Positions 33,162-56,760 of a DNA stretch of 64,000 nucleotides are shown piece after piece. The first letter of the stretch is position 1; every line of letters begins with the position of its first letter. Source of the DNA: an uncultured Chloroflexia bacterium (GTDB lineage: Bacteria; Chloroflexota; Dehalococcoidia; GIF9; AB-539-J10); assembly GCA_963769975.1 (NCBI GenBank), contig CAVYNS010000003.1:384434-448433 (forward strand), written 5' to 3'. The translations under genes were made by a program, and so were the position numbers. The notes below the pieces were generated by a model, which saw only the letters and a program-made list of their open reading frames with translations, ran no database searches and had not been told where the DNA came from.

Positions 33162-33467
33162 TTGGAGGGGCAGATGAAAGCAATAATAACGAGTATTATG
33201 GTAGCCATTGTACTAGCTTCAATCTTTTCCTTGCCGGCTCTAGCCCAAGAAAACAGTACCATCACCATCACTATGACAGGAGCCAATGAAATTTCCATTA
33301 GCCTGGATAAGACACAATGGCCTCTCGGGAACGTGGCTTCAAACACAGAATATGAGACAAGCCCGCCCATAGAGTGGTGCACACTGACCGTACAGGGCAA
33401 TTGTAATGTAAATACCTTTATTGTAGGGGATGATGCTAAATGGGATTGCGCTCACACAATAACATAG
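33162..33467 (+). CDS. small secreted protein (signal peptide); C-terminus DCAHTIT
   Basis: 101 aa; hydrophobic N-terminus ending ALAQE; its stop codon lies inside repeat copy A. Confidence 0.5.
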   Translation: MEGQMKAIITSIMVAIVLASIFSLPALAQENSTITITMTGANEISISLDKTQWPLGNVASNTEYETSPPIEWCTLTVQGNCNVNTFIVGDDAKWDCAHTIT

Positions 33468-33512
33468 AAATGCTACCATTCAGGGTGTGTGTTTGAGGTG
33501 ACAAGACAGGCG
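33444..33512. repeat. mosaic intergenic repeat family, copy A
   Basis: acaataacatagaa ... ttcagggtgtgtgtttgaggtgacaagacagg; shared with 35521-35660, 36378-36515 and 56585-56760. Confidence 0.6.
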
Positions 33513-33550
33513 GTTGTGCAATTTCACACTTCGCTATGCTATGGCTCTGG

Positions 33551-34972
33551 TTAAACAGTGACCTTTATCAGCCAGACATCATAGTCCCCGTACGAAGATG
33601 TGGAACCGGCAATGATGTATCCTCCATCTGAGGTTTGCTGGACTGAGTAGCCATAGTCGTCACCTGAACCGCCAAAGGTCTTGTTCCACGCCAAATTTCC
33701 TGAAGAATCGGCCTTTATCAGCCAGACATCCCCACCGCTATACCAGGACAACGCCGTGTAACCGGCAATGATGTAGCCTCCGTCCGAGGTTTGCTGGACT
33801 GAGTGGCCATAGTCACAAGATGAACCGCCAAAGGTCTGGTTCCACGCCAAATTTCCTGAAGAATCGGTCTTTATCAGCCAGACATCACTACAGCCAGCCC
33901 CGTAGGAATATGTGTTAGCGATAATGATGTATCCTCCGTCCGAGGTCTGCTGCACGGAGTCGCCTTCGTCATCCAGGGAACCGCCAAAGGTCTTGTTCCA
34001 CGTTTCATTTCCTGCAGAATCTGTCTTTATCAGCCAGACATCACGACTGCCAGCCCCGTAGGAATCTGTGCAACCGGCAATGATGTATCCTGCATCCGAG
34101 GTTTGCTGAACCGAGTACCCCTCGTCATAACCTGAACCGCCAAAGGTCTTGTTCCACGCCAGATTTCCTGAAGAATCCGTCTTCATCAGCCAGACGTCCC
34201 TATCGCCAGCCCCGTAGTATTGTGTGGAACCGGCAATGATGTATCCTCCATCCGAGGTTTGCTGAACTGAGTACCCCTCGTCATAACCTGAAGCGCCAAA
34301 GGTCTTGTTCCACGCCAGATTTCCTGAAGAATCCGTCTTCATCAGCCAGACATCTAAAACGCCACCCTCGTATGAATATGTGTAACCGATAATGATGTAT
34401 CCTCCGTCCGAGGTTTGCTGGACCGAGTAGCCATAGTCATAATCTGAACCGCCAAAGGTCTTGTTCCACGCCAAATTTCCTGAAGAATCTGTCTTTATCA
34501 GCCAGACATCAACATTGCCAGCGCCGTAGGAATCCGTGTAACCGGCGATGATGTATCCTCCGTCCGAGGTTTGCTGGACTGAGTAGCCCCGGTCAGTACC
34601 TGAACCGCCAAAGGTCTTGCTCCATGCTACTTCAGGATTATAATAGGTAGTAGCCCTGAAATTAGCGGCGATGTTCTTATCCGAGTCCATGGTAATGGCA
34701 ATACTGGATGTGTTGCCCGACGCACTACCAGTCCAGTGGTCAAAAGTATAACCACTAGCAGGGCTGGCTGTTAGTGTCACCTGTGCACCAGATTCATATT
34801 GGCCACCTGAAGGGGAGACCGAGCCTGCTCCTATGGGGTCAACGACTGTGGTAAGCTTGTAAGTCTCGGCAGAAGCTGGTCCCTCCCATGGTTTGAAAAC
34901 AAATAAGACTATCGCTACGATAATAGCTATGGTGCAACCTACGATGATTCCTGCCAGCTTTTTCTTACTCAT
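33551..34972 (-). CDS. membrane-anchored protein with an InlB-B-repeat-like domain and ~8 beta-propeller (SBBP-like) repeats
   Basis: 473 aa; N-terminal TM helix, [12 protein letters not shown] Ig-like segment, then ~48-aa tandem units ([28 protein letters not shown]). Confidence 0.7.
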
Positions 34973-35058
34973 TCAATTCTCCCCTATTAGCATTATCAAG
35001 CAGAACTAGGATGTCTGGTCTAAGCAATGTCAATCCTCTCCAAATCCACTTAGCTTAT

Positions 35059-35427
35059 CTAGACATCGGCTGACCGCTCAAACTTACAATCTATGTAACC
35101 GTTAGGCTTGAAAACAACTTTAATGCAATTATATGTTTTCTGGCCGTAACTGCCTTTTTTTAAAGAGAATTGGTAGGCAGTATCTAGATTATCCAAAGCT
35201 ATATGAAACAACCATTCTACGATTGCTTTTTCGCCCCAACCTTTGCCCTTCCTTTCATCCCAGTAATCCTTTATTGTCTTCTGGTCTTCCGGGTTGAAAT
35301 AGTGTCGCTCTTTGCGATGGCTAACTCCCGTGTTCTTAGCATACTTGTCAATCCAGTCGTGCAGTTCACCGAATGCAAAACCAGTTCTCTTTTTACTAAT
35401 AGCACAGTGCTTCTTCACGTCAGGCAT
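35059..35427 (-). CDS. hypothetical protein (122 aa)
   Basis: ORF only. Confidence 0.4.
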   Translation of the reverse strand: MPDVKKHCAISKKRTGFAFGELHDWIDKYAKNTGVSHRKERHYFNPEDQKTIKDYWDERKGKGWGEKAIVEWLFHIALDNLDTAYQFSLKKGSYGQKTYNCIKVVFKPNGYIDCKFERSADV

Positions 35428-35520
35428 AGTATTCCCCCTTTTTATACATCATATGAGAATCAAGAATAACAGTCAATACGCCTGAAGGATGCACTGAGAT
35501 TGAGTTTGAGGATAGCTTGA

Positions 35521-35660
35521 GGGATTGTGGGGACACAATAACATAGAACTTTTGCCGTTCAGCGTGCGCGCTTAATGTCGCATAATCACAATACATCACT
35601 CCCAGTTCGTGTAATGAAATAACAAAACAGGCAATTGTTACCCGAACTGCACGAAATATC
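35521..35660. repeat. mosaic intergenic repeat family, copy B (includes a degenerate gene 3' end ...DCGDTIT*)
   Basis: gattgtggggacacaataacatagaacttttgccgttcag ... aataacaaaacaggcaattgttacccgaactg. Confidence 0.6.
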
Positions 35661-35777
35661 CTTTTGTTACATCAGAGGTAACAACTCAAGCTTCTCTTGT
35701 CATAGCTGCACATTATCGACTAATGTTCAATCTTGTTGCAGTCATGAGGCGGCAAAATTGACTTAGTCCATTGAGTG

Positions 35778-36125
35778 TTACTTGCCGATCGGAGATGGTG
35801 CCAACAAACCAGCTAACGCACCTACAGCCGCTGATCCAAGCGCCACGAGTATGTCTGGGGCAGTCTTACCACCTGACACCAGAATAATGCCACCCACAGC
35901 AGCCATCCATGCGAGCGCACCAAGTGCGCCGACGATCATCCGGTATATCCACTTGTCACTATAATATGCTGGTGGCGGCGTCTCTTTTTTGGCCTTGTCG
36001 GCCACCTTTTGCAGTTCTCGGAGGGCTTGGGTGGGATCGGAAGTGCTTATTATGTCTCGCCATGTCTGGGGGTGTTCTTTTAAAATGCTTAACACTTTAT
36101 CGGCAGACCGTTCCTTCTCTTGCAT
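35778..36125 (-). CDS. small membrane protein (2 TM helices)
   Basis: 115 aa; Gly/Ala-rich hydrophobic C-terminal half. Confidence 0.5.
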   Translation of the reverse strand: MQEKERSADKVLSILKEHPQTWRDIISTSDPTQALRELQKVADKAKKETPPPAYYSDKWIYRMIVGALGALAWMAAVGGIILVSGGKTAPDILVALGSAAVGALAGLLAPSPIGK

Positions 36126-36377
36126 TTCTACCTCCTTATTCCAATGTTCGCAGCAAAATAATCCTAGGAACTCAAGTGTTGCTAAACAAGGTAAGTCTCT
36201 ATACGAAAATTAGCCGAATCTGTAAATTCGTAACACATACATTTGACTACGCACTTTGACATTAGTCTCTAAGGGCTACTTCTTATTTAAAATATTCTTA
36301 TAGAAATTACTATACAACTATTTAAGAGAAATTGTCAATAGTTTGTTCGTGGTTTCCAAAACATACTATGGAGTTAA

Positions 36378-36515
36378 GGAGTCACAAAACGCTGCTTTGT
36401 GCAGTGCGCCACAATCGGGATTGTGGGGACACAATAGCATAGAATTTTTGCCGTTCAGGGTGTGTGTTTGAGGTAACAAAACAGACTATTGTTGCCCGAG
36501 TTGAACAATACGTCA
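36378..36515. repeat. mosaic intergenic repeat family, copy C (with a 24-codon ORF ending ...DCGDTIA*)
   Basis: gtcacaaaacgctgctttgtgcag ... gattgtggggacacaatagcatagaatttttgccgttcagggtgtgtgtttgaggtaacaaaacagactattgttgcccgagttg. Confidence 0.6.
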
Positions 36516-36616
36516 GATTGTGTCATCCATGTACGAATCTGTTATGGTTCTATCATAGCTCGGAAGTGACGGGGAGTAGGTTGGATAATCTCTTTTGGAC
36601 GATGTCTGGTAATCAC

Positions 36617-37222
36617 TTACTCGGGCTCAGCAAACTGTTTAGCCGCATTATCCACAATGAGTTGTAAACTTTTCAGGTACTTATCGAACAGGTCGATTGC
36701 TGGCTCTTTGTCCCATGGCTCATCAACGAAATACATATGGTCAATAGTCGCAACTGTTGTAGATTCTCGCTTACGTTTTTTCCGGCGGAGCCGTCTCCTT
36801 ATCGTTCCAATTCGTTGTTTAAAGTATGCCAAAAAATCTTGACGTAAGTAACGTAGCTTACTTCTCCAAGAGCCTCGAATTACAGTAGCAGTCGCTGTAA
36901 CATGAACGCCTATAGATACGTGTGCTTTCATGGTGACGACCTTTCGCACAGAAATACTTTTTTCCTTTAAAACGAAGTTCCTTTGATTTAGGAAGAATTG
37001 TGCTAGTGGGTCTGCTCCTAGTGCGCTCTGTTGGCTCTCATACCATTCTTTGAAGCCGGGAGTGTTATTATATTGCTTTTGTAGCAGAAAGGTAACGCTT
37101 CTTGCCCATACAATAGCCGTTTCAAAAAAGTGGCTGAACTGGATTCGGTCTTGCATTTCAACTGCAACCGCTTTGTCGTAAAAGAAACGGACTTTGTTAA
37201 GACACTTCTGACCTTCAATCAT
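36617..37222 (-). CDS. hypothetical protein (201 aa, Arg/Lys-rich segment)
   Basis: ORF only. Confidence 0.4.
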   Translation of the reverse strand: MIEGQKCLNKVRFFYDKAVAVEMQDRIQFSHFFETAIVWARSVTFLLQKQYNNTPGFKEWYESQQSALGADPLAQFFLNQRNFVLKEKSISVRKVVTMKAHVSIGVHVTATATVIRGSWRSKLRYLRQDFLAYFKQRIGTIRRRLRRKKRKRESTTVATIDHMYFVDEPWDKEPAIDLFDKYLKSLQLIVDNAAKQFAEPE

Positions 37223-37436
37223 TTTTATGTGCCTACACTATGGATATAGACAATCACCGATATTCCTCATTTTAACAGGAATGTTAATCTAAAGATTCCG
37301 AGTGCAAATGGGCGCCAAAGATGTAATAAGAAACCACATAGTCAGGTCACATTTCATCTTTTTGTTACTTGACAATTCTGACGAAGGTGTGATTATGCGC
37401 TATGCTAATCATAATTCGTTCGGACTTTGGAGTGAG

Positions 37437-37841
37437 CTATTTAGAATCTGCCTCAGATATAGTGACCTCTCTGCAAGGAGACCAATTAGAGGAAACGCCG
37501 CTACCAGTACTCACCACCCTTGCTCTGATACAGTAGAGGCCGGAGATATGCCAGGTATGGGATGCGGTTATAGAAGATCCTGAGTCTACCAAGTCACTCT
37601 CGCTATGATTACCGTCTCCCCAGTCAACATAATACTGAACACTAAAGCCCAGGCTAGAACTTGCTCCCCCAATTGTGTACGTCAGGGTTTGTCCTACATA
37701 TCCAGTAGAAGGGCCACTGGGTATATTCGGCGGAATGAGCCACTCAACGTCAGGGTAAAGACGGGGGTGAAACACAACTATGGTGGCTGCTGCACAGGCA
37801 AGTAGAGCCAAGATTAAGACCAGCTTCCACCTAGTTTTCAT
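37437..37841 (-). CDS. small secreted protein (signal peptide)
   Basis: 134 aa; N-terminus MKTRWKLVLILALLACAAAT. Confidence 0.5.
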   Translation of the reverse strand: MKTRWKLVLILALLACAAATIVVFHPRLYPDVEWLIPPNIPSGPSTGYVGQTLTYTIGGASSSLGFSVQYYVDWGDGNHSESDLVDSGSSITASHTWHISGLYCIRARVVSTGSGVSSNWSPCREVTISEADSK

Positions 37842-38180
37842 CCTTGTTCCTCATGTACCACTCATCCTCGAAAGTCTAGTGCCCATACCATCTGCATAAC
37901 AACGTTATGTTGAAGATATTTCTATCAAACAACTTGCCTGTTTCGAAGATCAAGTGTAGCAGAAAGACATGCCTCTTGAGAATATTGTCAAAGGCAATCT
38001 TTGGCACCATTCCCAATATGCAGAAGGATGTAATCGGCTCCCGTGCTCGCCCAATAGTAACAATATAGCGGATTGTGTAGTTTTCCAGGCGCTTTTAAGC
38101 GCTAAGAGCACCTTTCCTAGCCTTCCTAGTCATGGATAGCAGAGTTAACAATAAGATGTCTTGTGTAGCCAGCCGGTGTC

Positions 38181-38552
38181 CTACGCCTGAAGCTCATTCA
38201 TAACATCTTCAAGAAGTCTTCGAAACCAAACTTTCTGTCTTGCAGTTTGCACGAGGAGTCTTTTCCATACATCGACAGGTTCTGTAATTGTTGTTTGACT
38301 GCCCCAATTTAATGTATCCTTCGGTTTCCGATAGTACCCGATTCTAATCCAAAGTGGTTTCAGTTCACCTTGAAATTCAATGAGGTCCACAACATCCCAA
38401 TATGGAACACCCTTGGTTCTAGGATTGCTAATGATGACAGCTCTGTCTTTTAATATCCCTCTCTTATTCCCTTCGCCTCCCGGAAACTTAAATGAGACTG
38501 GTTTACCCATTTTTTGTTTGATTTTGTCAATTATTTTACGATCATGTGCCAT
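38181..38552 (-). CDS. hypothetical protein (123 aa)
   Basis: ORF only. Confidence 0.4.
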   Translation of the reverse strand: MAHDRKIIDKIKQKMGKPVSFKFPGGEGNKRGILKDRAVIISNPRTKGVPYWDVVDLIEFQGELKPLWIRIGYYRKPKDTLNWGSQTTITEPVDVWKRLLVQTARQKVWFRRLLEDVMNELQA

Positions 38553-38625
38553 GTAATTTCCCTTTCATAAACTTTTTTGCCGAACTCCACCTGAGACAAT
38601 GCTAAGGTCGGTCTAAATAAGTCAA

Positions 38626-39072
38626 TCAGTCTTTCAAAAGTGTTTTAAAAGCTTGAATATCAAAGGGATCGCTTTCAGCTTGGGATTTCCACTGCTGCAT
38701 CAAGCTCTTCCAGGCAGATGTTTCCTGAAGTTCTTTGAATAGTTTCACAGGGAGATGCCCTTTGAGGTCGTTGAGGTCATAACAAACAAGTTGATAACCG
38801 TAGGACTCGTCGTTCGGGGAAATGTGATCAATAGCAGCGTATAGTGGATGGCACCCCGCCTCATTGATATTTGGATTTCCATACTTCTTCTCGAAGAGCA
38901 TTGACGCATTGGAAAGGGAACATCGCCCTTTCTGCCTGATTATTAGCTCTCTAAGCTGAGAAGGACTTAACTTTTTCTTATTCTTAGTCCATGCAATTTG
39001 GGCTTTAGTTAAATAATAATCATCTTCCATGCTGGCTGTGTCCCATAACTCGTTAAAATTCCTGTCTGACAT
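38626..39072 (-). CDS. hypothetical protein, possible HNH-like nuclease fold
   Basis: 148 aa; Cys/His spacing (GRCSLSN ... GCHPLYAAIDH) loosely resembles an HNH motif. Confidence 0.35.
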   Translation of the reverse strand: MSDRNFNELWDTASMEDDYYLTKAQIAWTKNKKKLSPSQLRELIIRQKGRCSLSNASMLFEKKYGNPNINEAGCHPLYAAIDHISPNDESYGYQLVCYDLNDLKGHLPVKLFKELQETSAWKSLMQQWKSQAESDPFDIQAFKTLLKD

Positions 39073-39349
39073 ATCCTAACCCTGCTCTCCATGATAGTCA
39101 ATCTCCTCAGGTAACCAGCCCTTCTTCCAAGAATTCCAGCCCGGTCGGTTCCTGCTCCAACGCTCACTGCTGCACATAACTGACAAATGTGCAATCTCGC
39201 GCCTGCTCGATAAAAATACATAAGGCAAAATTTCAAGAACTAGCTATTATGTCGGTAATCCCAGGGGGATAGGTGTCAAAATTAACGATGAAAAAACCTC
39301 ACATTTCGGGGAGACATCTGTGCTGGGCAGATAGGCTAAAAGTGTTATA

Positions 39350-40249: not shown

Positions 40250-40497
40250 CTGAATACTTTGGGACATCTAACAAATACTCATTATGTTGCCTTAACCCTT
40301 GCGGGGTATTGAACGAAATAGCGTTTTGTGACTGCTTAACCCTATGGCATCTTCTAAGCAAGGGTAGCAATAGCCCTGTGTTGTCAAAAATTCCTGCCAA
40401 GAGGGGAAAGCACGTGCTTTCCGAAAGCTGCTCCAGAGAAGCATGCTTTTTAGCTTAATGAAGCGCTTAAAAAGCAGCTGCTAATTTTATATTAGAT

Positions 40498-40875
40498 GAG
40501 CAGCTCGGGGTGAGCAGCTCGAAAGCAGCTTTTTTGAAGCCCTGATTACGAAGGGTCTCTTGGGGCAACTAGTCAAAACCCAGAAGCAGCTTCTGAATTT
40601 ACGTTTGGCCGAGCAGCTCGGAGCGCTGCTCGGAGCAGCTTTTTTGACCCCCTGATTACGAAGGCGTTATCTTAAGGCAACTAATCAAGGTTCGGAAGCA
40701 GCTCAAGATTTTACGTTGGCCGAGCAGCTCCGAGCAGCTGCTCAAGCAGCTTTTTTGAAGCCCTGATTACGAAGGCGCTATCTTAAGGCAACTAATCAAG
40801 GTCCGGAAGCAGCTCAAGATTTTACGTTGGCCGAGCAGCTCCGAGCAGCTCAAAAGCAGCTTTTTCTTGAGGAGA
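40498..40875. repeat. non-coding tandem repeat, 111-bp unit, ~3.4 copies
   Basis: Units start at 40498, 40611, 40722 and 40833; each contains gagcagctc(g/c)g ... agcagcttttttga(a/c)gccctgattacgaagg ... aaggcaactaatcaagg. Confidence 0.8.
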
Positions 40876-40985
40876 TTCTCGAGATGGGGAAAGTAATTTG
40901 CTTTCCACCGTGCGAAAATCATTTACTATTCGGCGAAAACTGCGCTCCATAGTAAGCATTCCCTAGAGCATCCAAACGTGCTATA

Positions 40986-42165: not shown

Positions 42166-43416
42166 TCAAACCGCCTCGTATCTCCTGACTTGCCGTCCTC
42201 TATCCGTTTTCTGGTACGAGTTCTTGATTAGTCCAATCTTCGCAAGTGGCGCTACCAGGCTTTCGAGTTCCTTCGCTGATATTGAGAGCCGCCGGTAAAC
42301 TTCCCGCTCCGGGACCGACCCGCCCTCAGCCCGCAAAAATTCTAGTAATTTAATCTCTTGAGCCTTGCCACTTGACGTTCCGAAGCTGGCGAATACTTCA
42401 GTTACGCTCGCTTCTAGATAGTTCCCCACTGCAATCGCCGCTTCTAGGTGGTCTACTGATATACTCTCTGACATCGTGTCTGCCGCATAGAGTAAAGCTA
42501 TCTTCCAAATGAAGTCCTGAATCCTGACAATAAGCGTGGGTATCAATCCCGGTTGCTGACAGCGCCGGTAATATTCGTGGTAGTATTCCTCAAACAGTGT
42601 GCTTGCCTCGTCTGAGATGGTTATCTCACCGTTGGGCACGTCCTCAGCCCAGCTACGAATCTGATTCAACTCCCGAACTAGCTCATTGCGCTTGTCCAGG
42701 TCAACCTTTGGCGGATTCGGCATGGGGTCTTTTGGCAAGCCATAAAAGTAACACCAGCGATTTGCGAAGCCGCCGTATATGTCCCTCTCGGTGAGCGCCT
42801 TTTGTAGCCAATCCTGTGTCGTGCCCGCCATTATGGAGAGGAAAGGCTCTTTAGCTGGCTTCACGTCTTTTTGATGCACTGGCGGATTTAACAGGTCTGG
42901 AGAATCGTACAACTCGTTGAGCGCTGGGATAATGTTACCTAGCGAATCTTGTTTGGCCTTTGCCAGTAAAGATAGCAGCTCGCCAAGCTGTATGAGCCTG
43001 ACTTTCCGCTCTCCGGCCAGTTCATCCAGCAAGCCTTCATAGCTTCTGATTCCCCTAAGTGTTTTGAATGGCGGACTTGGGTCATCCTCTGAGTACGCGT
43101 GAAGCATGTCCAATACGCTGCGGCCCCTTGACCATGTGGTGTCTTTGCGTGTTAGCCCGCTTCTACCTACAAGGCAGTTAAAGAAGTTAGGGAATAGCCT
43201 TGTTGCGTGATACGTAAAAAGGCGCCTGCCGATGGTACACCCAAAGACTTGAAGAAACGTGGCATAGTGGAAGGCATCTGCCGCCTCGGTAGTATTTGCT
43301 ACCATATCTCGATAGTCTTTCAATAAGCCTCGCCATGCGATAGCGGGTATTTCCAGACTGGCCGGAGTAGTAATCGGCTTTGAGAGTGCCTTTTCCGTAA
43401 TTATTATCTCTGGCAT
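42166..43416 (-). CDS. primase-associated protein (DUF3987-like C-terminal domain family)
   Basis: 416 aa with no P-loop; overlaps the upstream primase gene by 13 nt; arrangement typical of integrative-element replication modules. Confidence 0.4.
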   Translation of the reverse strand: MPEIIITEKALSKPITTPASLEIPAIAWRGLLKDYRDMVANTTEAADAFHYATFLQVFGCTIGRRLFTYHATRLFPNFFNCLVGRSGLTRKDTTWSRGRSVLDMLHAYSEDDPSPPFKTLRGIRSYEGLLDELAGERKVRLIQLGELLSLLAKAKQDSLGNIIPALNELYDSPDLLNPPVHQKDVKPAKEPFLSIMAGTTQDWLQKALTERDIYGGFANRWCYFYGLPKDPMPNPPKVDLDKRNELVRELNQIRSWAEDVPNGEITISDEASTLFEEYYHEYYRRCQQPGLIPTLIVRIQDFIWKIALLYAADTMSESISVDHLEAAIAVGNYLEASVTEVFASFGTSSGKAQEIKLLEFLRAEGGSVPEREVYRRLSISAKELESLVAPLAKIGLIKNSYQKTDRGRQVRRYEAV

Positions 43417-44369
43417 AGCTGCCCCCCTGTCGCTAGTAAATCGTCCAACCCCTTAAACTCTGCGTTCCAATCAGCCTCAAAGGTGCGTATTCTACGCTTG
43501 ATTAGGCAAGCAATTAAGGCGTTCTTATGGAGATTGACAACAGGATAAGATAGCTTGTCCATGTCAAAGGCAACAATCGCCCTTGCTGGTGCGAGTTCAC
43601 GGACTATCGGTATAATGCCCGGCCAATTGCCAACACCAGGCACGGCCAAAACAACACGCTCCAGCCTCAGAGCGGCAATATCGGCTTTAATCGGCCCTTC
43701 GGTAATCCACATTTCGCTCTTAGTGGACACTGGCCCTGCTACATGTACCGGCGCTCCTGGAGAACAGCCGGCGAAGTAGCCGCGAGAGCTTAACCACCTA
43801 TAGCGGCTACCGTTCTCTGTGTTGTCACACCGGATTTGCAATCCTATAATACGGCGCTTAGTGTCCCTTACGGGTATCAGAATCCCGGCTGGGCCTGAGA
43901 GCCTAACTTCCTCAAACCCAAGCCAGAAGCCCGGGACGCCGATTAGCTTGAATCCCTTTGCTTTGAGACTTTGCACTACGCCGCGCCTCCCGTTTACCGG
44001 GAATGATTTGTACTCTAGTCTGAGAATCTCATCGTCCGTTAGTCCCCGGCGTTGTAAGTTTGTGCGGTGGGTATCTGATAGTGACAGTTCTACGAGCAGG
44101 GCGTGGTAAGCTCTGTCAAGCACGTCTGGCGCCGCTTTTGGTATTTGCTTTGCATCAGGTCTAGGCTTAGGTAGCGGTAATGACTTCATGGTGTCCAGTT
44201 TGTGTATCCAACCTGCACCTTTCTTGCCTGCGGGTTTATCACTCTCAATGCGAGCGCAGATAGCGGCTTCCCCATCCTGTGATATAAGACACCAATCAGG
44301 CTTACCGCATACCGGGCACAGGTTATGCTTGGTAACACGAATCCACTTGTTAGCCGTTGCCGTGGTCAT
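43404..44369 (-). CDS. zinc-ribbon + TOPRIM primase (P4-type/DnaG-like)
   Basis: 321 aa; CPVCGKPDWC ... AAIC zinc ribbon, then a TOPRIM with conserved E (ITEGP) and DxD (AFDMD). Confidence 0.6.
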   Translation of the reverse strand: MTTATANKWIRVTKHNLCPVCGKPDWCLISQDGEAAICARIESDKPAGKKGAGWIHKLDTMKSLPLPKPRPDAKQIPKAAPDVLDRAYHALLVELSLSDTHRTNLQRRGLTDDEILRLEYKSFPVNGRRGVVQSLKAKGFKLIGVPGFWLGFEEVRLSGPAGILIPVRDTKRRIIGLQIRCDNTENGSRYRWLSSRGYFAGCSPGAPVHVAGPVSTKSEMWITEGPIKADIAALRLERVVLAVPGVGNWPGIIPIVRELAPARAIVAFDMDKLSYPVVNLHKNALIACLIKRRIRTFEADWNAEFKGLDDLLATGGQLCQR

Positions 44370-45593: not shown

Positions 45594-48317
45594 GTGGTTG
45601 ACTACAGCATAGAGGTTTCAGTTACCGAGGGTACGACAAATACTGAGCGTGGAAACTTGTTAGTAGAGTTGATGCGCGATGTATTTGATGCGACTAACCA
45701 TACCAGTGGTCCGTCTATTAGGGTCACTGGTATGGAGATAGATACTACTGCTACTCATAATGTCACCGGCGAGAAGATATATGCCGAGTGCAAGGCTTAT
45801 AGAGAACCTATACCAGCAGATACTATTTCAAAACTATTGGGCAACGTTTTTCTTAAGAACGTAGACCAGGGATGGCTGGTAACTACATCTAAGCTTTCTA
45901 AGGACGCCGAGGGATCAAAGGAAGAGTGGGAGAAGAAACCTCCAGAAGAACGTCGTCGATTACAGGTCTACAATCCTCCTAGACTGCTAACTCTGTTAAT
46001 AGCTTCAAACCGTATCTTTGATCCAGCCAAGATAACAGCTACCTCAGGAACGGAGCAGGGTAACTGGTATTTTCTTCTGACTAATCTTGGTCGTTACTGG
46101 GCAAAGTTGGTAGTAGAGGCAGGCATACCGAGTAGAGTCATCGTCTATAATGCACAGACAGGCGTGTTAGTAAACGATGCGGAGCTTTTGAAAAAACTCA
46201 AACTGACTGACACTAGCCTCCGCGATTTCAATTGGCCAATTCCTTCTCCCAATGGTTCAGGGGTGGGAGAGTTGCTTGCCTACTTATCGGAAACGGTTGT
46301 TGATGTCGCGACTGGTGATACTTGGGCGGATTATCGTCCTGCCAGACCTCAAGACTTTGTGGGTCGGCATGATCTTCAAGATACTATGCGAGATTTATTT
46401 CTAGGTATTAGGAATAGAAGTACTAACACTCGTTTATTCTCAATAACTGGACCGTCGGGATGGGGTAAAAGTTCTTTAATTGCGAAACTACGGGACCGCT
46501 GTAGTAATAAGGCAAATCGTAAGAAATTTTACATGACTGCATTTGATATGAGAGCCGCCAAATCGTCAAACTATGTTTCCGCTGCTCTCCTAAGGTGTTT
46601 CTCGTCAGCGATCCAACGAAATTTTATTCTTCGGCCTGTTATGCCACTGCAAGTGGGAGCTCCCACAACGCCTCTTGAAAGTGAATCCTTACAAGATTGT
46701 TTACAACAGCTTAAAGATAAGAACAAAGTACTCATCTTAGTTTTTGATCAGTTTGAGGAGGTACTTACTAAACCCGAATTGAGGCAGCTATTTGATAGAC
46801 TTCGGTTACTCGCTTTGTCAGTGGATGCACAAAAAGAGAATCTTGTCCTTGGCTTTGCTTGGAAAAGCGATGCTTTTCTTCCACAAGATCACCCCGCGTA
46901 CTATCTTTGGCATCAACTCAAGGACAGACGTCTTGATCTGGCTGTGCCACGTTTTGGTTCAAAGGACGTCTCGCAAGCCCTAACACACTTCCAAACCGAA
47001 TTGGGACAACGCTTGAATCCTGTTTTACGCTCACAATTGGTACAGCATTGTCAAGGTTTTCCTTGGCTACTCAAAAAGCTGTGTATTCATGTTCTTAACC
47101 TCGTAAGACGTGATCTAAGTCAGCTGCAGGTGCTAGAGCGAGGACTAGATGTACGAGGACTGTTCGAAGCAGATTTAAGTGGGCTTTCCAGTAAGGAAAC
47201 ACTGTGCCTTAAAGAAATCGCGCGGTTGGCACCTGTTGAATGGGTACAAATTGTCGAACAATTCGGGAATGATACATACACTTCACTACTAGGTAAACTG
47301 TTGATAGTTCGTAGTGGCGACAGGCTGAACCCATATTGGGATATTTTCGGAGACTATCTGCGCACCAATGAAATCCCACATGTGCCTGTGTCTTTTCTGC
47401 CAGGAACTGAAATCCGAACTTTAGCAAGAGCAGCTGTTATTACTGTTATGAACAGGCCAGCAGGAGTCACATTAGAAAAACTGAGCACATCGCTGTCTAT
47501 AAATAGTAGGTCAGCAGGTAATGTTGTTCGAGATTTACAGATGTTTAGTCTTGCAGAGAGAAAAGGTGATCATATCGTTTCAACGATAGCTATCAAGGAG
47601 ACAAGAGATGCAGTCGCTGAGATCGCAAGACTAATCGCTCGCGCCTTAAATAACCACACCTTTACAATTATACTTCGTAGGAATGTAGCAAAGGGTTCAG
47701 AGATTACTGAACAGGATTTGCTTGGGTTCTTTAATGAGGCATTCCGGTATGCGTCACTCCGTGATGTCACAAAGAGAATGTACACACTCCGACTCGCCAA
47801 ATACTTGACGGCAACCCGCTTTCTCGAGCGTGTTCCTAGCGTATGGATACTCATTGATGAATTGACGGGACAGTTGATATTAATGCCAAGAGTTAGAGGT
47901 GCAGGTGAGTTTCTAGGAGATGCTCCTCCTGGAAGAGTTTTGGAGGTGCTGCAGAAGCTGTCGGAGTCTCCTGTGCCGAGAGCAGTCTTGAATAAGTCTC
48001 GTCTGAGGAACGCGACAGCATGTGCAATAATGCTGGAGCTCGCAAGCACACGTGATGGCATCGTTTACAGGCTAGAAGATACTAAGGACATGGAGGCTTC
48101 ACTAGTTGGAGCAGTAACCAACACTAGGTCTTTTAAGATAGTTTCAGAGCTTATCTGCAAATCTCCCAACATATCAGCAACGGAAATCGGTAAAACTCTG
48201 TCTGCCCACCTTGATTTGCCTTGGAGTGAGGCATCAAACCTTCGCCGTGGTAACGCGCTTCGTAGGTGGGTTCGGTGGTCGCAAAGTCAGACTTCCACAC
48301 GATCGGAGCCTGTATAG
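45594..48317 (+). CDS. STAND-type P-loop NTPase with an N-terminal Mrr-like PD-(D/E)xK nuclease domain (Avs-like antiviral STAND candidate)
   Basis: 907 aa; N-terminus GMEID ... EKIYAECKAY (D ... ExK); Walker A GPSGWGKSS; Walker B LILVFDQFEE; ~450-aa C-terminal helical region. Confidence 0.75.
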   Translation: MVDYSIEVSVTEGTTNTERGNLLVELMRDVFDATNHTSGPSIRVTGMEIDTTATHNVTGEKIYAECKAYREPIPADTISKLLGNVFLKNVDQGWLVTTSKLSKDAEGSKEEWEKKPPEERRRLQVYNPPRLLTLLIASNRIFDPAKITATSGTEQGNWYFLLTNLGRYWAKLVVEAGIPSRVIVYNAQTGVLVNDAELLKKLKLTDTSLRDFNWPIPSPNGSGVGELLAYLSETVVDVATGDTWADYRPARPQDFVGRHDLQDTMRDLFLGIRNRSTNTRLFSITGPSGWGKSSLIAKLRDRCSNKANRKKFYMTAFDMRAAKSSNYVSAALLRCFSSAIQRNFILRPVMPLQVGAPTTPLESESLQDCLQQLKDKNKVLILVFDQFEEVLTKPELRQLFDRLRLLALSVDAQKENLVLGFAWKSDAFLPQDHPAYYLWHQLKDRRLDLAVPRFGSKDVSQALTHFQTELGQRLNPVLRSQLVQHCQGFPWLLKKLCIHVLNLVRRDLSQLQVLERGLDVRGLFEADLSGLSSKETLCLKEIARLAPVEWVQIVEQFGNDTYTSLLGKLLIVRSGDRLNPYWDIFGDYLRTNEIPHVPVSFLPGTEIRTLARAAVITVMNRPAGVTLEKLSTSLSINSRSAGNVVRDLQMFSLAERKGDHIVSTIAIKETRDAVAEIARLIARALNNHTFTIILRRNVAKGSEITEQDLLGFFNEAFRYASLRDVTKRMYTLRLAKYLTATRFLERVPSVWILIDELTGQLILMPRVRGAGEFLGDAPPGRVLEVLQKLSESPVPRAVLNKSRLRNATACAIMLELASTRDGIVYRLEDTKDMEASLVGAVTNTRSFKIVSELICKSPNISATEIGKTLSAHLDLPWSEASNLRRGNALRRWVRWSQSQTSTRSEPV

Positions 48318-48454
48318 ACCCCTTGCTGAACTTGTGTACAAACAAGGTCTTCATTAGGTTTATTAGGTGCTCGGTGAGGGTGAAATTAATATAGCTTATT
48401 CATGGTTAGGTAGCTGACACATTTCTAATAATCCGTCCCGACGTCACAATATGA

Positions 48455-48500
48455 CGAATTGTTACGCTAGAGGTAACAAAACAGGCTTTTGTGACTTTAA
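48455..48500. repeat. mosaic intergenic repeat family, partial copy E
   Basis: ttgttacgctagaggtaacaaaacaggcttttgtgac matches the 3' module of copies B and C. Confidence 0.45.
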
Positions 48501-48567
48501 GCCGTTGTTCTCCTCCTTCTGCCCTATGTTCTAGACAGACAATATGTTGAACCTCTAGACTATAGAC

Positions 48568-49329
48568 ATGGCACGAGAAACTTGGCATCAACCAACTATG
48601 GTAGAGAAGCGTGAAACCAGTATTAATGGGCAAACCATCACATATACAGTCAAGCGAAGCCTTAGGGCAAGGCATGTTCGGCTCGAGGTGAGACGGCAAA
48701 CGGGGCTTACGGTAGTTGTTCCTCACTCTTACAAGATTGGGCAACTCCCTAGACTTCTAGAATCGAAGGAACGATGGATCTCAAGTAGCTTGGCAAGATG
48801 TAGCAATTTCCAATCGCCTTATGCCGAGAAGGAACTCGGGAGTGGCGATACTGTCCCCTATCTTGGCCGAGACTTGAAGCTAGTCAAGCGGGAAAACCAC
48901 AGTGAAGTTGATAGTGTAACGCTAGAGGGAGATACACTGGCAGTGAGTCACGGATTATTTAAAAATGGTATCTTGGAGTTGGCTTTGGAACAGTGGTATC
49001 GGGCGGAGGCTGCTAGGCTGATAAACGAGAGAGCAGATAGGCTGAGTTCTCAGATGGGCATTCACTGCAAACGAATTGTCATACGAGGTCAAAAGACTCG
49101 CTGGGGCAGCTGCTCTCATAAGAAAAATCTTAGCTTTAACTGGAAACTAATAATGGCGCCAGAGCCTGTGATCGACTATGTTGTTATCCATGAACTTGCC
49201 CATCTGAAAGAGATGAATCATTCAAAGAGGTTCTGGGAATTGGTAGCTCAACACTGTCACAGATGGCGGGAGTATAAGAAGTGGCTCAGGCAACACGAGG
49301 CAAACCTTACTGCGAAACTCTGTCCCTAG
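48568..49329 (+). CDS. DUF45/YgjP-family metal-dependent hydrolase (WLM/SprT-like HExxH)
   Basis: 253 aa; HELAHLKEMNH zinc-binding motif. Confidence 0.75.
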   Translation: MARETWHQPTMVEKRETSINGQTITYTVKRSLRARHVRLEVRRQTGLTVVVPHSYKIGQLPRLLESKERWISSSLARCSNFQSPYAEKELGSGDTVPYLGRDLKLVKRENHSEVDSVTLEGDTLAVSHGLFKNGILELALEQWYRAEAARLINERADRLSSQMGIHCKRIVIRGQKTRWGSCSHKKNLSFNWKLIMAPEPVIDYVVIHELAHLKEMNHSKRFWELVAQHCHRWREYKKWLRQHEANLTAKLCP

Positions 49330-49431
49330 AAATAGCCTTGATTGCACATTTTGGACATTTGTTATTGAAACAAATGCCCAAAATAGGGCCGAGAGGGGCG
49401 TATCAGTTCGTCCTGAAGTGCTTCAGTCGCG

Positions 49432-50517: not shown

Positions 50518-50636
50518 CTATTGTCCTCCAGTTGAGCTTACGCCGATTCAGTATACCATAGCGGCGTTAGACTTACCGAACCTGGTTCAAAACCGTGTAC
50601 TACAAGGCCCGGGGCACGAATCGCCCAAATGTTAAG

Positions 50637-51569
50637 CTAGATATTGTTCGCGTTTCCTTGGAATATTTGCTTTCTACAAATCAAGGTGACGTCTCGGACT
50701 AGGCCTAAAGTTCTGGGAATTCGCTCTATTATAGTTGGTATTGCCTGAACGATTCCGAGTCCTTGAGTATAATCTTGTGGCTCCAGAAAACCTCCTGGAT
50801 ATCGTGTATAACTCTCGTGAGGGAAGGTTAACACTCCAAAGATATAACACTGACCTGCTGCCTGACCAAATTTCACCGAGGAATAGGTAACAATTGATTC
50901 TTTGTACTCAGGTAGGTATTCTGCAAAAACGGTTTTGACTTCATTTTCCTTCTGCTCTAATAATGGATGTGTTGTGAAGAGTGCGTCAGCAACTCTGATC
51001 AGTCCCTCTATGCCGAGTACACGGGGGGACGAGTTCATGGGCAGCTTGGCTAGCCGCTGTTGATCACTGTTAACTAGTTTCTTCACTTGGGTGATGGCTG
51101 TCTTGTAGTCTCGGTTATCAAGTGAGTTCAGTATACTCATCATCTCGTTGCCGGGCTTTTCTTCAATGATCTTCAATAGAGGTTGTGGAGTTCGATGAGT
51201 TGTGAGCAGTTCCTTAATGGTTACATCACCAATCGATAAGCAGAAAGCTTTCATGGCCTTTTCAATTGCTTGCTGGATGTGATAAACGCTCAGAGCAAGT
51301 TCCCCATGTTGAAAGAGTAAATTTGCCGCCCTATGATCTGCTTCTCCAGCGCCTAGGTATTTATCAGCAATGTCCAAAGAAGACGAATCTCGCCTTATCA
51401 CGACATGCTTGAGGGCACGCTTTACGAGTACTTCTGTTCGGAGCGAGTCTATCTGGTTAGCTTTCGGCATCAACTTCTTGATACCCGGCTTAACCCTAAG
51501 CCATAGCGTCTCGATTAGTTCATTTCCATTTTCGTTTGCCATTTGGTCGCCCGGAATGAATAACATCAT
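50637..51569 (-). CDS. hypothetical protein (310 aa)
   Basis: ORF only; follows the EEP gene on the same strand. Confidence 0.45.
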   Translation of the reverse strand: MMLFIPGDQMANENGNELIETLWLRVKPGIKKLMPKANQIDSLRTEVLVKRALKHVVIRRDSSSLDIADKYLGAGEADHRAANLLFQHGELALSVYHIQQAIEKAMKAFCLSIGDVTIKELLTTHRTPQPLLKIIEEKPGNEMMSILNSLDNRDYKTAITQVKKLVNSDQQRLAKLPMNSSPRVLGIEGLIRVADALFTTHPLLEQKENEVKTVFAEYLPEYKESIVTYSSVKFGQAAGQCYIFGVLTFPHESYTRYPGGFLEPQDYTQGLGIVQAIPTIIERIPRTLGLVRDVTLICRKQIFQGNANNI

Positions 51570-51776
51570 TCAGCCATTCAAATTCTACCACGATTCGCAT
51601 ATGGGAAGCGTGCTAACTTCGGTTATGAGGATAAACAAACCGCTAGATTGTATAGCCAATGTGACTAATCAACGAAATCAAGATTTGAACCTTAAGCGCT
51701 CCCTCTCAAAACTAGCTTGTCTAGGGACTTGCTGTATTAGCGAGAGTGCTCCGCAGCAAGCTGCGGGGAGGTTCAC

Positions 51777-54470: not shown

Positions 54471-55122
54471 GCTCTATCGACCATTGGGTAGGGAGGAAGT
54501 CGGCCACGACTCTGTCATGCGTTGCAACCACCAGGGTAGCACCGATCTCTTCAACGAAATCTAGAAGAGAGTCCATCAGATACCGGGAGCCCTCACTGTC
54601 TTGTTGCCCAGTCGGCTCATCGGCCAGCAACAGCGCGGGACGTGTAACTAATGCCCGGGCGATACCTGCTCTCTGTGATTGGCCCCCCGAAATCTCCTCA
54701 GGCAAGCTGTAGCCAACGTCTGCAAGTGACATGCGTTCCAGCATTTCCCAAGCAGCCTTCAGCGCTTCGGGTTCGGGATCACCGGCTATAAGAAGAGGCA
54801 AAGCCACGTTTTCGGCGACGGTCAGGGGCGGAATGAGGCTGTGCCCCTGGAATGCCATTGCCACTAGCCTAGGCCTCAGCCGCTCTTTTGCTCCTAGAGC
54901 AGGCCACTGGATCATGCCGTTTGTGGGCGAATCAAGCCCCGCGACCAAGTGGAGCAACGTCGTCTTCCCGCTTCCCGACGAGCCGACCAACGCTATGCGC
55001 GAATGGGCAGAGATCTGAAAAGTAGCGCCCTCCAGCGCGATAACGGCGCGCTCACCTGTACCGTAGATTTTCCCGATGTTATCCGCTCTAACCAGTGGGT
55101 CATGCATCGGTGATCCTGCCAT
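54448..55122 (-). CDS. ABC transporter ATP-binding protein
   Basis: 224 aa; Walker A GSSGSGKTT, ABC signature LSGGQSQR, Walker B LLLADEPT. Confidence 0.85.
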   Translation of the reverse strand: MAGSPMHDPLVRADNIGKIYGTGERAVIALEGATFQISAHSRIALVGSSGSGKTTLLHLVAGLDSPTNGMIQWPALGAKERLRPRLVAMAFQGHSLIPPLTVAENVALPLLIAGDPEPEALKAAWEMLERMSLADVGYSLPEEISGGQSQRAGIARALVTRPALLLADEPTGQQDSEGSRYLMDSLLDFVEEIGATLVVATHDRVVADFLPTQWSIEHGHLQMG

Positions 55123-55789
55123 CTGAGAGTCGAATCAGGCGGTTGGCCTCTCTGGCCACGCGCTCGCTGTGCGTGACCACAACAACAGTACCCCCGGCCT
55201 CGGCCCTGTCCCTCATGATTTTCAAGATTGCTGCCTCGTTCTTGGCATCAACCTCGCCGGTCGGCTCATCGGCAAGGAGGATAGGTGGGTTGTTTGCAAG
55301 AGCTACGGCTAGACCGGCACGTGCTGCCTCTCCTCCGGAGAGTGTTGATGGCCAGGCGTTAGCCCGGGCCTCTAAACCTACAGCGGCCAAAATGGTACCG
55401 GCATCTGGATGCTCTCCCTTGACCAAATACTGAGCAACTTTAATATTCTGTGCGACCGTCAGGTGTTCCAATAGATTTCCTGACTGCAAGAGCACCCCCA
55501 TCCACTTGGCTCGCAGCTCAGTTCGCGCTGTTTCCGGTCGTCTGGTGATTCGGTCCCCAGCAATATCAACATGACCTCCGTTAGGTTCGTCGAGGCCAGC
55601 GATGCAGGCAAGCAGAGTAGATTTTCCACTTCCGGAGGGGCCTACAACCGCCACCATTTCGCCAGCGTGGACCGATAGGGATACACCACGCAGTGCAAAA
55701 GTCTCATCGTCCCCGTTATGGTAAAACCGGTATAGTTCTGAGACACGGATGAGGAGCTCGCCTGAGCAAAGGCTACCCGTTAGAGCCAT
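55100..55789 (-). CDS. ABC transporter ATP-binding protein (second ATPase)
   Basis: 229 aa; Walker A GPSGSGKST, signature LSGGEAAR, Walker B LLADEPT. Confidence 0.85.
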   Translation of the reverse strand: MALTGSLCSGELLIRVSELYRFYHNGDDETFALRGVSLSVHAGEMVAVVGPSGSGKSTLLACIAGLDEPNGGHVDIAGDRITRRPETARTELRAKWMGVLLQSGNLLEHLTVAQNIKVAQYLVKGEHPDAGTILAAVGLEARANAWPSTLSGGEAARAGLAVALANNPPILLADEPTGEVDAKNEAAILKIMRDRAEAGGTVVVVTHSERVAREANRLIRLSDGRITDA

Positions 55790-56352
55790 TTGAAGCTCTC
55801 CGAAATAATTTTCCAGGGATCCACATTATCTGCGCCCACCGGAGACGCAAGCATCAGATTCACCTGGAGACCGTTTCGATAAAACTCGTAAAGGAGCACA
55901 TCCATCCTGTACTTCTTTCCAGTGACCTGGTTTGGTGCGCTGTCCTTCTGGTATTTGATAAGTATCGCCGTACCTCCGGGCAAGGTGACCTGCTTGGTTT
56001 CGACAAGCTGGAATGCAGGCTCGGTGCTTGCTAGCTCCGGCACATCGACCGAGTTTGCCCGCTCGACAGTCGGCTCTGGAGCATCAGGAACCCACCTGAT
56101 GGATACTATGTTCAGCTTGTCGGTGAATTCAGTACTTGACTCAGAGGTCGACTGCGCCCATCCCTCCGGTACCTTGACCTCAAAACTCCCGCTGGTCGGC
56201 TTGTACATCACGAAGACCTGGTTGTCTGGAATATCACCAGAAGGATTAACCCCCTCGTTGCTTGCGGATTTTCCGTGTGCTAAAGCCAACAATACCGACC
56301 CGGTTGCTATTAATACTATTAATATCAGATAGACCAACCTTTTTTTCTTCAT
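55780..56352 (-). CDS. secreted/lipoprotein component of the ABC system
   Basis: 190 aa; signal peptide MKKKRLVYLILIVLIATGSVLLALAHG. Confidence 0.5.
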   Translation of the reverse strand: MKKKRLVYLILIVLIATGSVLLALAHGKSASNEGVNPSGDIPDNQVFVMYKPTSGSFEVKVPEGWAQSTSESSTEFTDKLNIVSIRWVPDAPEPTVERANSVDVPELASTEPAFQLVETKQVTLPGGTAILIKYQKDSAPNQVTGKKYRMDVLLYEFYRNGLQVNLMLASPVGADNVDPWKIISESFKWL

Positions 56353-56584
56353 CTAAACCTCCTTCGTTTGGCCACACGACCTCGCCATGGTTCTTATTCG
56401 AGAATCGTACTTGTCATTTAACCGACATTTCTCATATGACATCCCTGCCTGCAACATTATGCCACCTCACAGGCTGACCCCTAATGCCAGAATCGATGCC
56501 CCTATGTTCTTTTTGGGGAACATTTTGGTCAATTATATTACATCAAGATGAATAGGGGATGAAATAGCTAAATCGTATTCTTTA

Positions 56585-56760
56585 ATTTGCCGTTCACTCC
56601 CGGTTCATGTTGCTGTGTTTACATGGTCACAATAACACTCAGTTTTTGTCTTCAGGGTGTGTGTCTGACTACGCTGTTAATACCTTTTGTTGCTTTGTGG
56701 TTACAGGTATCAAGTCAAAGCAAGAAGTCACAAAACGCTAAAAAGTGCAATCAGATATAA
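56585..56760. repeat. mosaic intergenic repeat family, copy D (rearranged)
   Basis: tttgccgttcac ... ggtcacaataacactcagtttttgtcttcagggtgtgtgtctgac ... gtcacaaaacgctaaaaagtgcaatc. Confidence 0.55.

Follow-up and report, generated by a model that had tools for sequence, protein, structure and literature searches.

We examined a repeat family in a 64,000-nucleotide (nt) stretch of the 737-kb contig CAVYNS010000003.1 from an uncultured Dehalococcoidia bacterium (referred to as the window). Our analysis points to the repeat as the place where mobile gene cassettes meet in a site-specific system of a Dehalococcoidia lineage, a reading to which we assign a probability of roughly 60%. Confidence is moderate to good for a cassette system in general and low for its enzymology. 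Sediments and aquifers harbour abundant Dehalococcoidia, most of them uncultured, whose small genomes have sharply delimited variable regions. How genes are gained and lost in these regions is poorly understood, except for integration next to the tmRNA gene in Dehalococcoides. An earlier note on this DNA had proposed several roles for the repeat, and one of them, recombination sites for gene-cassette exchange, is supported by comparative evidence from a junction within a secreted-protein gene, a shared 1.6-kb unit, and a cassette encoding a YgjP-like metallopeptidase. The YgjP cassette is the most telling evidence; its ends are nucleotide-precise in about a dozen unrelated contexts.

Modular structure and palindromic sites of the repeat

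Anchoring the copies on their core revealed a modular structure of an L hairpin, the core, an M module, and an R hairpin. The core, GGGATTGTG-N4-CACAATAACATAGAACTTCTGCCGTTCAGCGTGCGTGTTTA, contains a hairpin with a 4-nt loop, ATTGYG-NNNN-CRCAAT, and is usually flanked on the left as ...(C/T)AAAT(C)GGG|ATTGYG, where the vertical line marks a point of joining. The L module (GGAGTCACAAAACGCTRCTTTGTGCAGCACTAAAATCG, with one variant that has a 50-nt insert) and the M module (ATGTGGCATGGTCACAATACAACATTCCCAGTTTGTGTAATGA, missing in copies A and C of the window) are optional. The R module reads GGTAACAAGACAGGCTTTTGTGCAATTTCAC or ...CAGGCAATTGTTACCCGA.

A small palindromic site, ACAAW-spacer-WTTGT, is present in every module, with the general form (C/T)ACAAW - 4 to 13 nt - WTTGT(G/T). 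In a full element, such sites are found in the L hairpin, at CACAAT-CGGG-ATTGTG, once in the optional M module, and in the R hairpin, which has the form GGTAACAA-N-CAGGC-WWTTGTKAC. The pattern ACAAW-N4-9-WTTGT matches the window 14 times, compared with 1.9 matches expected, and 13 of these 14 lie between 35.6 and 61.5 kb, downstream of copy A.

A YgjP cassette at 20 loci

The YgjP cassette of the window is 96-98% identical in the assemblies of two other species, where its flanks are different. Scanning metagenomes with the left end of the cassette yielded 17 further loci, for a total of 20. The median pairwise identity of the cassette across these loci is 0.976 (mostly 96-99%, with one truncated copy at 94.6%), whereas relatives are 85-94% identical in the one stretch of core genome that we measured. 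In most pairs, neither of the 200-nt flanks can be aligned (median score about 0.1, as matches over length). Three loci are exact duplicates, leaving 17 non-identical left flanks, and some of these are orthologous at 79-88% identity, which reduces the set to about a dozen unrelated contexts.

Every left flank closes with an arm of the ACAA type (or CACA type) and then NN-CAGGC, or one of its one-base variants (TAAGC, TACGC, CAGGT, or CAAGC). The 3′ terminus of the cassette is always ...GATTGCACATTCTGGAC, and in 12 of 13 distinct right junctions, all but that of L045, which diverges ~40 nt earlier, the right flank opens with four variable bases and then GT(T/G), typically GTTAC, in the pattern NN-WWGT(T/G). 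This pattern would be expected of insertion into an R-type site, GGTAACAA-N-CAGGC|WW-TTGTTACC, in one orientation, at one phosphodiester, and without duplication. At locus L012, an unoccupied R site lies next to a gene homologous to the one located after the cassette in L030, L046, and L057. Collectively, these comparisons indicate that at least one cassette is mobile between species, with boundaries that are precise and recurrent at the edge between spacer and right arm.

A second unit behaves similarly. L030 and L036 have in common a 1.6-kb unit (88% identity) that starts at GGG|ATTGTG and ends with an L module, ...CGGG|, between unrelated flanks. We found no target duplication at the ends of this unit (GGG|ATTGTG ... 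CGGG|) or at the YgjP flanks (..CAGGC| ... |NNWWGT..).

These junctions could also arise if the units were non-autonomous single-strand elements (HUH/Y1, IS200/IS605-like, or palindrome-associated transposable elements [PATEs]) or rolling-circle elements, with a transposase encoded elsewhere. The elements would carry subterminal hairpins and be pasted 3′ of a target word (CAGGC or YGGG) in a hairpin loop, and the repeat would represent nested, decayed ends and preferred targets. Such an origin fits the single-point junctions, and the units resemble IS200/IS605, PATE, and REP/RAYT elements in having hairpins at or near both ends, no classical inverted terminal repeats, and no target duplication. 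The orientation is fixed, and a conserved word of 4-5 nt stands directly 5′ of the insertion point, with a similar but non-identical word at the right end of the element (CAGGC| versus CTGGAC|, YGGG| versus CGGG|); oriented insertion just 3′ of such a word is compatible with IS200/IS605 transposition without being specific to it. However, the units stand head to tail with one common junction, as is typical of recombination into a resident site, their targets are full palindromes resembling the sites of the element itself, and their cargo consists of ordinary genes. No Y1/HUH transposase appeared among the most frequent Pfam families of 245 open reading frames (ORFs) flanking elements or cassettes, a weak negative that covers the top 25 families only. 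We consider an origin by single-strand transposition unlikely, if worth keeping in view.

Junctions in a secreted-protein gene

Copy A is fused to a gene encoding a secreted protein of 97 amino acids (aa). Homologues of this protein are numerous in metagenomes and come in two forms. The short form has 97 aa and ends W-DC(A/G)x(T/A)IT-stop; the long form has ~170-182 aa and continues past the same tryptophan into VDNPSAYKWTLS...ITISAVAA. When the long form was compared with the window by tblastn, its homology ended at 33443, and its C-terminal half was absent throughout the 64 kb. The 90%-identity cluster that holds the protein of the window is dominated by 182-aa members. By these comparisons, the 97-aa protein is evidently a truncated version of a ~170-182-aa protein.

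Over 1286 nt, the loci L038, with the short form, and L039, with the long form, agree at 99.9% identity; all aligned bases match up to AATGGG, after which the two diverge completely. In a neighbour-joining tree of the 75 N-terminal residues common to both forms, short ones do not separate from long ones but are interleaved with them. At least six variants of the core loop (spacer) are fused to the gene, and four distinct contents lie downstream of the fused element (in the window, L004, L026, and L032). At the break point, the intact gene reads GCTAAATGGG|(G/A)T(G/T)GAT, which resembles the usual left flank of the core and can therefore be regarded as a look-alike site. These data indicate that the gene junction is polymorphic and recurrent, and that the look-alike site has been used repeatedly.

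The earlier note had read the shared tails differently. It correctly described WDCAHTIT-stop as ending the ORF at 33467, and DCGDTIT-stop and DCGDTIA-stop in copies B and C, and it proposed that the repeat propagates a gene's 3′ end together with its 3′ untranslated region (UTR). In 37 of 42 distinct copies, from seven or more assemblies, the DCxxTIT-stop frame is open for only 7-72 codons and is part of no gene. The two variable residues of the tail correspond to the 4-nt loop of the ATTGYG-NNNN-CRCAAT hairpin. The shared tail is an in-frame reading of the terminal hairpin of the repeat, not a conserved protein end. Because the repeat begins exactly where long-form homology stops, and because the tail frame is mostly geneless, the repeat replaced the end of the gene and did not copy one. 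The genes adjoining the right side of the repeat sit on the strand opposite to the one read in the earlier note, with their 3′ ends abutting it, which likewise contradicts the propagation of a gene end.

If B and C were decayed paralogues of the secreted-protein gene, and the repeat its copied 3′ end and UTR, the resemblance of their tails to DCAHTIT-stop of copy A would follow directly. Yet no gene similarity precedes the tail in B, C, or 37 copies from other genomes, and the usual form of the protein lacks the tail and is ~80 residues longer. With the variable residues lying in the hairpin loop, we regard such a descent as extremely improbable. For annotation, recurrent short "proteins" that end in DCxxTIT should be viewed as truncation products.

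Two further variants of the gene were noted. At L001 (10001-10270, protein P0039), a long-form gene in another context carries TGG -> TAG at the fusion tryptophan codon, and the frame is intact after the stop. A third truncation type comprises ~77-aa forms that break after ...TSPP and end with SYAMIFGSWKYL and a stop (P0049, P0053, P0054, P0057, P0059, P0060, and P0063-P0065), which suggests a second, different insertion joint in the secreted-protein gene.

Occurrence in other genomes

A search for the core pattern GGATTRYG-N5-RCAATARCATAGAA, with each species represented by one genome, detected 31 loci. All but one are in Dehalococcoidia/Chloroflexi assemblies, the single exception being a WOR-3 bin. 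The assembly CAYFSE01 alone has at least 14 core matches on 11 contigs, JAOUFZ01 and CAVSBM01 are likewise rich in copies, and elements in arrays of the same orientation are spaced 1.1-2.8 kb apart. The similarity thus extends well beyond the window, and breakpoints of variable DNA coincide with the repeats. A literature search returned no description of this repeat, which is weak evidence since most subscription journals were outside its coverage. In a scan of viral contigs, a single prophage-like contig had one core copy (L042, 1914-1940). This IMG/VR contig encodes phage capsid, portal, and terminase proteins, and the core copy lies beside a gene for a protein with a GLUG motif; (pro)phage DNA is thus among the places where the element can occur.

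The gene to the right of a plus-oriented element is almost always on the minus strand, which places the element just 3′ of a gene. The commonest neighbours are paralogues of a 473-aa surface protein of the window (26 ORF fragments in one cluster by all-versus-all blastp), and the Pfam family Flg_new_2 was detected in 12 of 147 ORFs flanking elements. Many unrelated genes also lie beside the element in other genomes.

This arrangement invites another explanation, in which the repeat is a conserved transcript end (a terminator or 3′-UTR RNA) plus the promoter-upstream block of surface-protein paralogues, spread by duplication, and its copies are mere substrates of homologous recombination that shuffles the island. 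Many of the 26 paralogue fragments directly adjoin the element, as this explanation would have it, and the near-constant position 3′ of a gene agrees with it as well. In a consensus scan, the R modules of copies B (35644-35628) and C (36498-36482) on the minus strand, which is the gene strand, resembled intrinsic terminators (stems with only 3 G-C pairs; 6 sites versus 3.5 expected in the region). One predicted hairpin is G-U rich and possible only as plus-strand RNA.

A transcript end is harder to reconcile with the unrelated genes that are also flanked by the element (YgjP, the 115-aa and 201-aa ORFs, and others) and with the nucleotide-precise ends of the YgjP cassette in about a dozen unrelated contexts, one of which has no other homology to the element. 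The junction in the 170-aa gene has ~8 nt in common with the element, too little for homologous recombination. Nor did we find support for the earlier suggestion of a conserved 3′-UTR regulatory RNA. Rfam gave 0 matches at the gathering score across the whole window and 0 at E <= 1 in 33300-36700. Covariation in the core hairpin was not significant (variable pair T-A 24, T-G 8, C-A 5, C-G 5; Fisher p = 0.24), the second hairpin had mostly one-sided changes with one double change in 17 sequences, and the folding z-scores were modest (-1.2 to -2.5). A spreading transcript end therefore strikes us as quite improbable.

A model for cassette exchange

Under a site-specific cassette system, a unit would start just past the spacer of one site, end with the spacer of the next, and carry one or two genes. 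New DNA would be joined at one phosphodiester, at the boundary of spacer and right arm (...CAGGC|TTTTGTG..., ...CGGG|ATTGTG...), in fixed orientation. In the secreted-protein gene, the look-alike site GCTAAATGGG| would have been used and the 3′ half replaced, leaving the 97-aa ORF with its DCAHTIT-stop tail. All DNA downstream of 33444 would then be accessory DNA of the cassette type, including the surface-protein, small-protein, YgjP, STAND, HEPN, TIR, and restriction-modification genes. A dedicated recombinase, presumably encoded elsewhere, would act in trans, exchanging one strand where arm and spacer meet and leaving replication to resolve the product, much as integrons (attC x attI) or Xer-dependent elements do. 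One strand exchange followed by replication would explain the single-point junctions; single-strand HUH transposition would also give them. The suggestion that the repeats are att-like remnants holds in a loose sense.

The model predicts particular sequences. An excised circle should contain the junction GATTGCACATTCTGGAC|TTTTGTGAC, or GATTGCACATTCTGGAC|TTTTGTGACTTTAAGCC. At the gene locus, a join of ...CACAATCGGG to GT(G/T)GAT(A/G)AYCC would represent the missing right junction with the 3′ half of the gene. Recombination would be predicted between GGTAACAAAACAGGCAATTGTTACC and the cassette junction site, with cleavage at C|TT on one strand only.

More specifically, and at somewhat less than even odds, we tentatively propose an undescribed gene-cassette capture system of Dehalococcoidia, parallel to integrons but built from different parts. 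It would combine clustered ACAAW-spacer-WTTGT sites, cassettes with their own expression signals, single-point joining, and a recombinase acting in trans. Were this correct, surface-protein, defence, and housekeeping-like genes would be moved between species, look-alike sites within genes would be usable, and the site grammar of the cassettes would explain why single genes are nearly identical across species. The site motif would provide a handle for cassette arrays in metagenomes, which integron finders would probably miss (by inspection, the sites lack attC features), and the system would imply a recombinase whose target is defined, compact, and orientation-specific.

Several observations weigh against a site-specific cassette system. 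The first concerns the enzyme. One tyrosine-integrase query had no tblastn hit in the window, and Pfam searches detected no recombinase family among the 38 of ~73 window ORFs scanned or in the 25 most frequent families of the first 147 flanking ORFs; Phage_integrase was present in 3 of the second 98 flanking ORFs, in two contexts. Reading the arms as 7-10 nt leaves spacers of only 4-5 nt, a short distance for a classical tyrosine recombinase, and no circular intermediate was observed. The second concerns the junctions. L012, the sole unoccupied site seen, was compared across flanks with only 72% identity. The search pattern partly determined where the YgjP cassette begins on the left; the likely position of its left crossover was read from the right end together with the general variation of R modules. 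Many independent contexts are available for this one cassette only, and the A-B and B-C units of the window were found in their present context only. Finally, the window does not contain the rest of the interrupted gene, so that insertion and insertion plus deletion are indistinguishable.

The integrase beside the cassette at L048 and L054, the only such case, was considered as the enzyme of the system and set aside, since it adjoins a tRNA fragment; it may belong to an ordinary integrative element. At L054 (2500-3730), the gene for this tyrosine recombinase of 327 aa has a tRNA 3′ fragment on one side and a complete site (GGTAACAAAATGTCCTTTTGTTAC) on the other, the site being followed directly by the YgjP cassette. 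About 2 kb upstream of the recombinase gene, the opposite strand carries another integrase gene.

Comparison with known systems

Integron cassette arrays and CALINs (attC clusters without a neighbouring integrase) appear closest in logic to the arrangement described here. In both, units of one or two genes are arrayed between structured, imperfectly palindromic sites, and most arrays have no integrase beside them, as in CALINs. As with integron cassettes, the same cassette (YgjP) is nearly identical in many arrays with precise ends, the junction is a single point as from one-strand exchange, and a fixed "first position" junction takes up different cassettes.

The differences from integrons lie in the sites and in their surroundings. 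An attC site spans 57-141 nt and combines R″ (RYYYAAC), L″, L′, and R′ (GTTRRRY) boxes with extrahelical bases, whereas our sites lack the R″-L″...L′-R′ architecture and the RYYYAAC/GTTRRRY consensus. In 42 aligned copies inspected by eye, the R hairpin GGTAACAA...TTGTTACC keeps the AAC/GTT triplets but has no L boxes, has 5-9 nt between its arms, and does not respect the RYYY/RRRY classes. The crossover appears to fall at the boundary of spacer and right arm rather than at G|TT: the YgjP cassette ends ...CTGGAC|, and the 4 nt before GT(T/G) vary by context, which places the join 4-5 nt 5′ of GTT. Unlike integron cassettes, the units of the window have promoter-like sites of their own, cassettes carry genes in either orientation, and several sites follow one another, separated by short non-coding modules. 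The "first position" is inside a protein-coding gene instead of beside an integrase. In integrons, attI and IntI, a tyrosine recombinase with a specific insert, lie beside the array; the scans of window and flanking ORFs described above found no IntI.

Neisserial intergenic mosaic elements (NIMEs) are built of RS modules separated by the 20-bp palindromic dRS3 repeat, ATTCCC-N8-GGGAAT, and minimal mobile elements are known from the same genus. Like the present repeat, NIMEs occupy intergenic DNA as mosaics whose short modules are interchangeable and delimited by a small palindrome. Both occur downstream of genes, often ones for surface proteins, and where gene content varies, and both serve as targets for the insertion of mobile DNA. 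Their sequence and host phylum are unrelated, and the gene exchange in Neisseria is thought to proceed mostly by homologous recombination after transformation, whereas the boundaries here are nucleotide-precise.

Xer-dependent modules (integrative mobile elements exploiting Xer and the pdif modules of Acinetobacter plasmids) are also small gene modules bounded by short arm-spacer-arm sites. They use a host recombinase encoded elsewhere, and single-strand exchange leads to a precise junction. In contrast to them, where spacers have 6 nt, ours range from 4 to 9 nt, our sites occur in clusters, and our arrays are direct, while the orientation of pdif modules alternates. We rejected an identity of the core with dif/Xer sites, since only the 7-nt TATGTTA matches the XerD arm of dif, by eye and at chance level. 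A miniature inverted-repeat transposable element or DDE transposon was rejected as well. Terminal inverted repeats with target-site duplication, by which such an element would be recognized, are not seen here; no target-site duplication stands at cassette or unit ends, and the remainder of the gene does not follow copy A.

Copies of the repeat in the window

A repeat search of the window recovered the family at 33442-33517, 35521-35596, and 36417-36492 (ungapped identity 62-80%). Two diagnostic module patterns of 27 and 26 nt each matched the window twice, with 0.00 matches expected from shuffles. A core profile trained on 42 sequences (39 copies from other genomes plus copies A, B, and C) matched A, B, and C at E = 1e-16 to 1e-19. 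Across profiles the values for these copies range from 1e-13 to 6e-36, the latter for copy B against the full-length profile. Copies A, B, and C are thus confirmed, far beyond chance. In the alignment, copy B has an extra 42-nt module that is absent from A and C.

Copy D (48439-48505) matched the full-length profile at E = 0.0012, and two other genomes have a complete element at its position, before the same gene; it is a real partial copy. Copy E (56625-56668) gave marginal values (profile E = 0.011-0.08) and is at best a degenerate remnant. When copy E was compared with the sequence that follows copy A in the closest relative, L032, a 46-nt module alone matched (76%, E = 0.006), and this single match led us to reject copy E as the syntenic continuation of that sequence. 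The earlier count of five copies undercounted the family, which also includes an orphan L module and four isolated sites (Table 1). The L-type variant of the orphan module is also present upstream of a homologous cassette gene in L066.

Table 1. Positions of repeat copies, sites, and associated genes in the window
Feature	Position	Strand	Remarks
Truncated secreted-protein gene, 97 aa	33174-33467	+	ORF spans 33162-33467; probable start at 33174; codons from 33444 (DCAHTIT-stop) come from copy A
Copy A, short type	33442-33531	+	Core 33442-33497; R-type module 33494-33531; no L module
Join of copy A and truncated gene	33444|33445	+	GGG|ATTGCG; synteny of relatives stops at the join
Anchored surface protein, 473 aa	33551-34972	-	InlB B-repeat and seven 52-aa repeats; Pfam Flg_new_2; cargo of first unit, 3′ end abuts copy A
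122-aa ORF	35059-35427	-	Second gene of first unit; promoter-like site 35476-35448
Copy B, long type	35521-35691	+	Core 35521-35576; M module to ~35617
R hairpin site of copy B	35622-35638	+	ACAAAACAGGCAATTGT, then a further inverted motif, TTGTTACATCAGAGGTAACAA
Small membrane protein gene, 115 aa	35778-36125	-	Cargo of 896-nt unit between cores B and C
Copy C	36378-36524	+	L hairpin 36378-36417 (ACAAAACGCTGCTTTGT); core 36417-36471; R hairpin 36476-36492
Palindromic junction of copy C	36409-36426	+	CCACAATCGGGATTGTGG; additional site 36505-36521
Isolated intergenic site	38060-38076		ACAATATAGCGGATTGT; same ACAAW/WTTGT form
Orphan L-type hairpin module	40310-40333	-	GTCACAAAACGCTATTTCGTTCAAT; no adjoining core; exact 13-mer match, nhmmer E = 0.014
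Copy D	48439-48486	+	Right-hand sites only: ACAATATGACGAATTGT, then GGTAACAAAACAGGC (left arm and spacer of R-type site); core missing
YgjP-like metallopeptidase cassette, 870 nt	48487-49356	+	From TTTTGTGACTTTAAGCC to GATTGCACATTTTGGAC; Pfam YgjP-like
Copy E	56585-56764	+	Rearranged; core-like 56625-56668; L/R-type hairpin head GTCACAAAACGCT at 56727-56739
Further isolated single sites	51635-51651, 57972-57988, 61457-61473		Motif scan

Units, cargo, and neighbouring genes

The window is syntenic with its relatives across the operon upstream and the section of the small secreted-protein gene that encodes the N-terminal part, as far as 33443; the DNA identity is 94% to L032 and 85-87% to L004 and L006. 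The earlier proposal that copies bracket a 33-57 kb segment is thus verified on the left side only. No tRNA or tmRNA gene that could serve as a classical attachment site was found in the window.

In the units of the window, a site resembling a promoter lies on the L side, and the opposite side has an R hairpin resembling a terminator. Upstream of the 115-aa gene, the promoter-like site is TTGACA-18-TATAGT at 36338-36309. The 115-aa protein at 100% identity was found in the same arrangement only. Homologues on other contigs, at 65-69% identity, retain the upstream block of L-type hairpin and promoter, with no full element detectable. The 473-aa protein belongs to the 26-member paralogue cluster, the family that most often stands beside the element elsewhere. 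Within its gene, 33586-34665 consists of six to seven tandem coding repeats of 156 nt (52 aa). In another assembly of this species, the protein has 421 aa and is exactly one repeat shorter than the 473 aa found here, so the repeat number varies in the population.

Downstream genes encode a STAND-Mrr NTPase, YgjP, an EEP nuclease, a HEPN protein, an ABC transporter, a TIR protein, and a type I methyltransferase. PADLOC returned no hits among the small cargo ORFs. Genes of defence type are located at 45594-48317, 50637-51569, and 58003-63660. They include a STAND NTPase with an Mrr-like nuclease domain, the HEPN protein, the type I methyltransferase, a TIR-domain protein with Thoeris ThsB-like hits, and a protein with weak CARF/PD-DExK hits.

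Between 40483 and 40870, an intergenic unit of ~111 nt, rich in GAGCAGCTC/AAGCAGCTTTTTTGA, is present in three to four tandem copies (repeat families D3, D5, D6, and I5). L060 and L061, which are independent assemblies of the same locus, both end near this tandem array. At 42166-44369, neighbouring DUF3987 (helicase-like) and DUF3854/zinc-finger primase-like genes are of a kind typical of integrative or satellite elements; the scans described above found no integrase in the window. A gene of the LOG/SLOG family ("lysine decarboxylase-like") at 56911-57980 is apparently split into two consecutive ORFs of 156 and 193 aa, as by a frameshift or stop.

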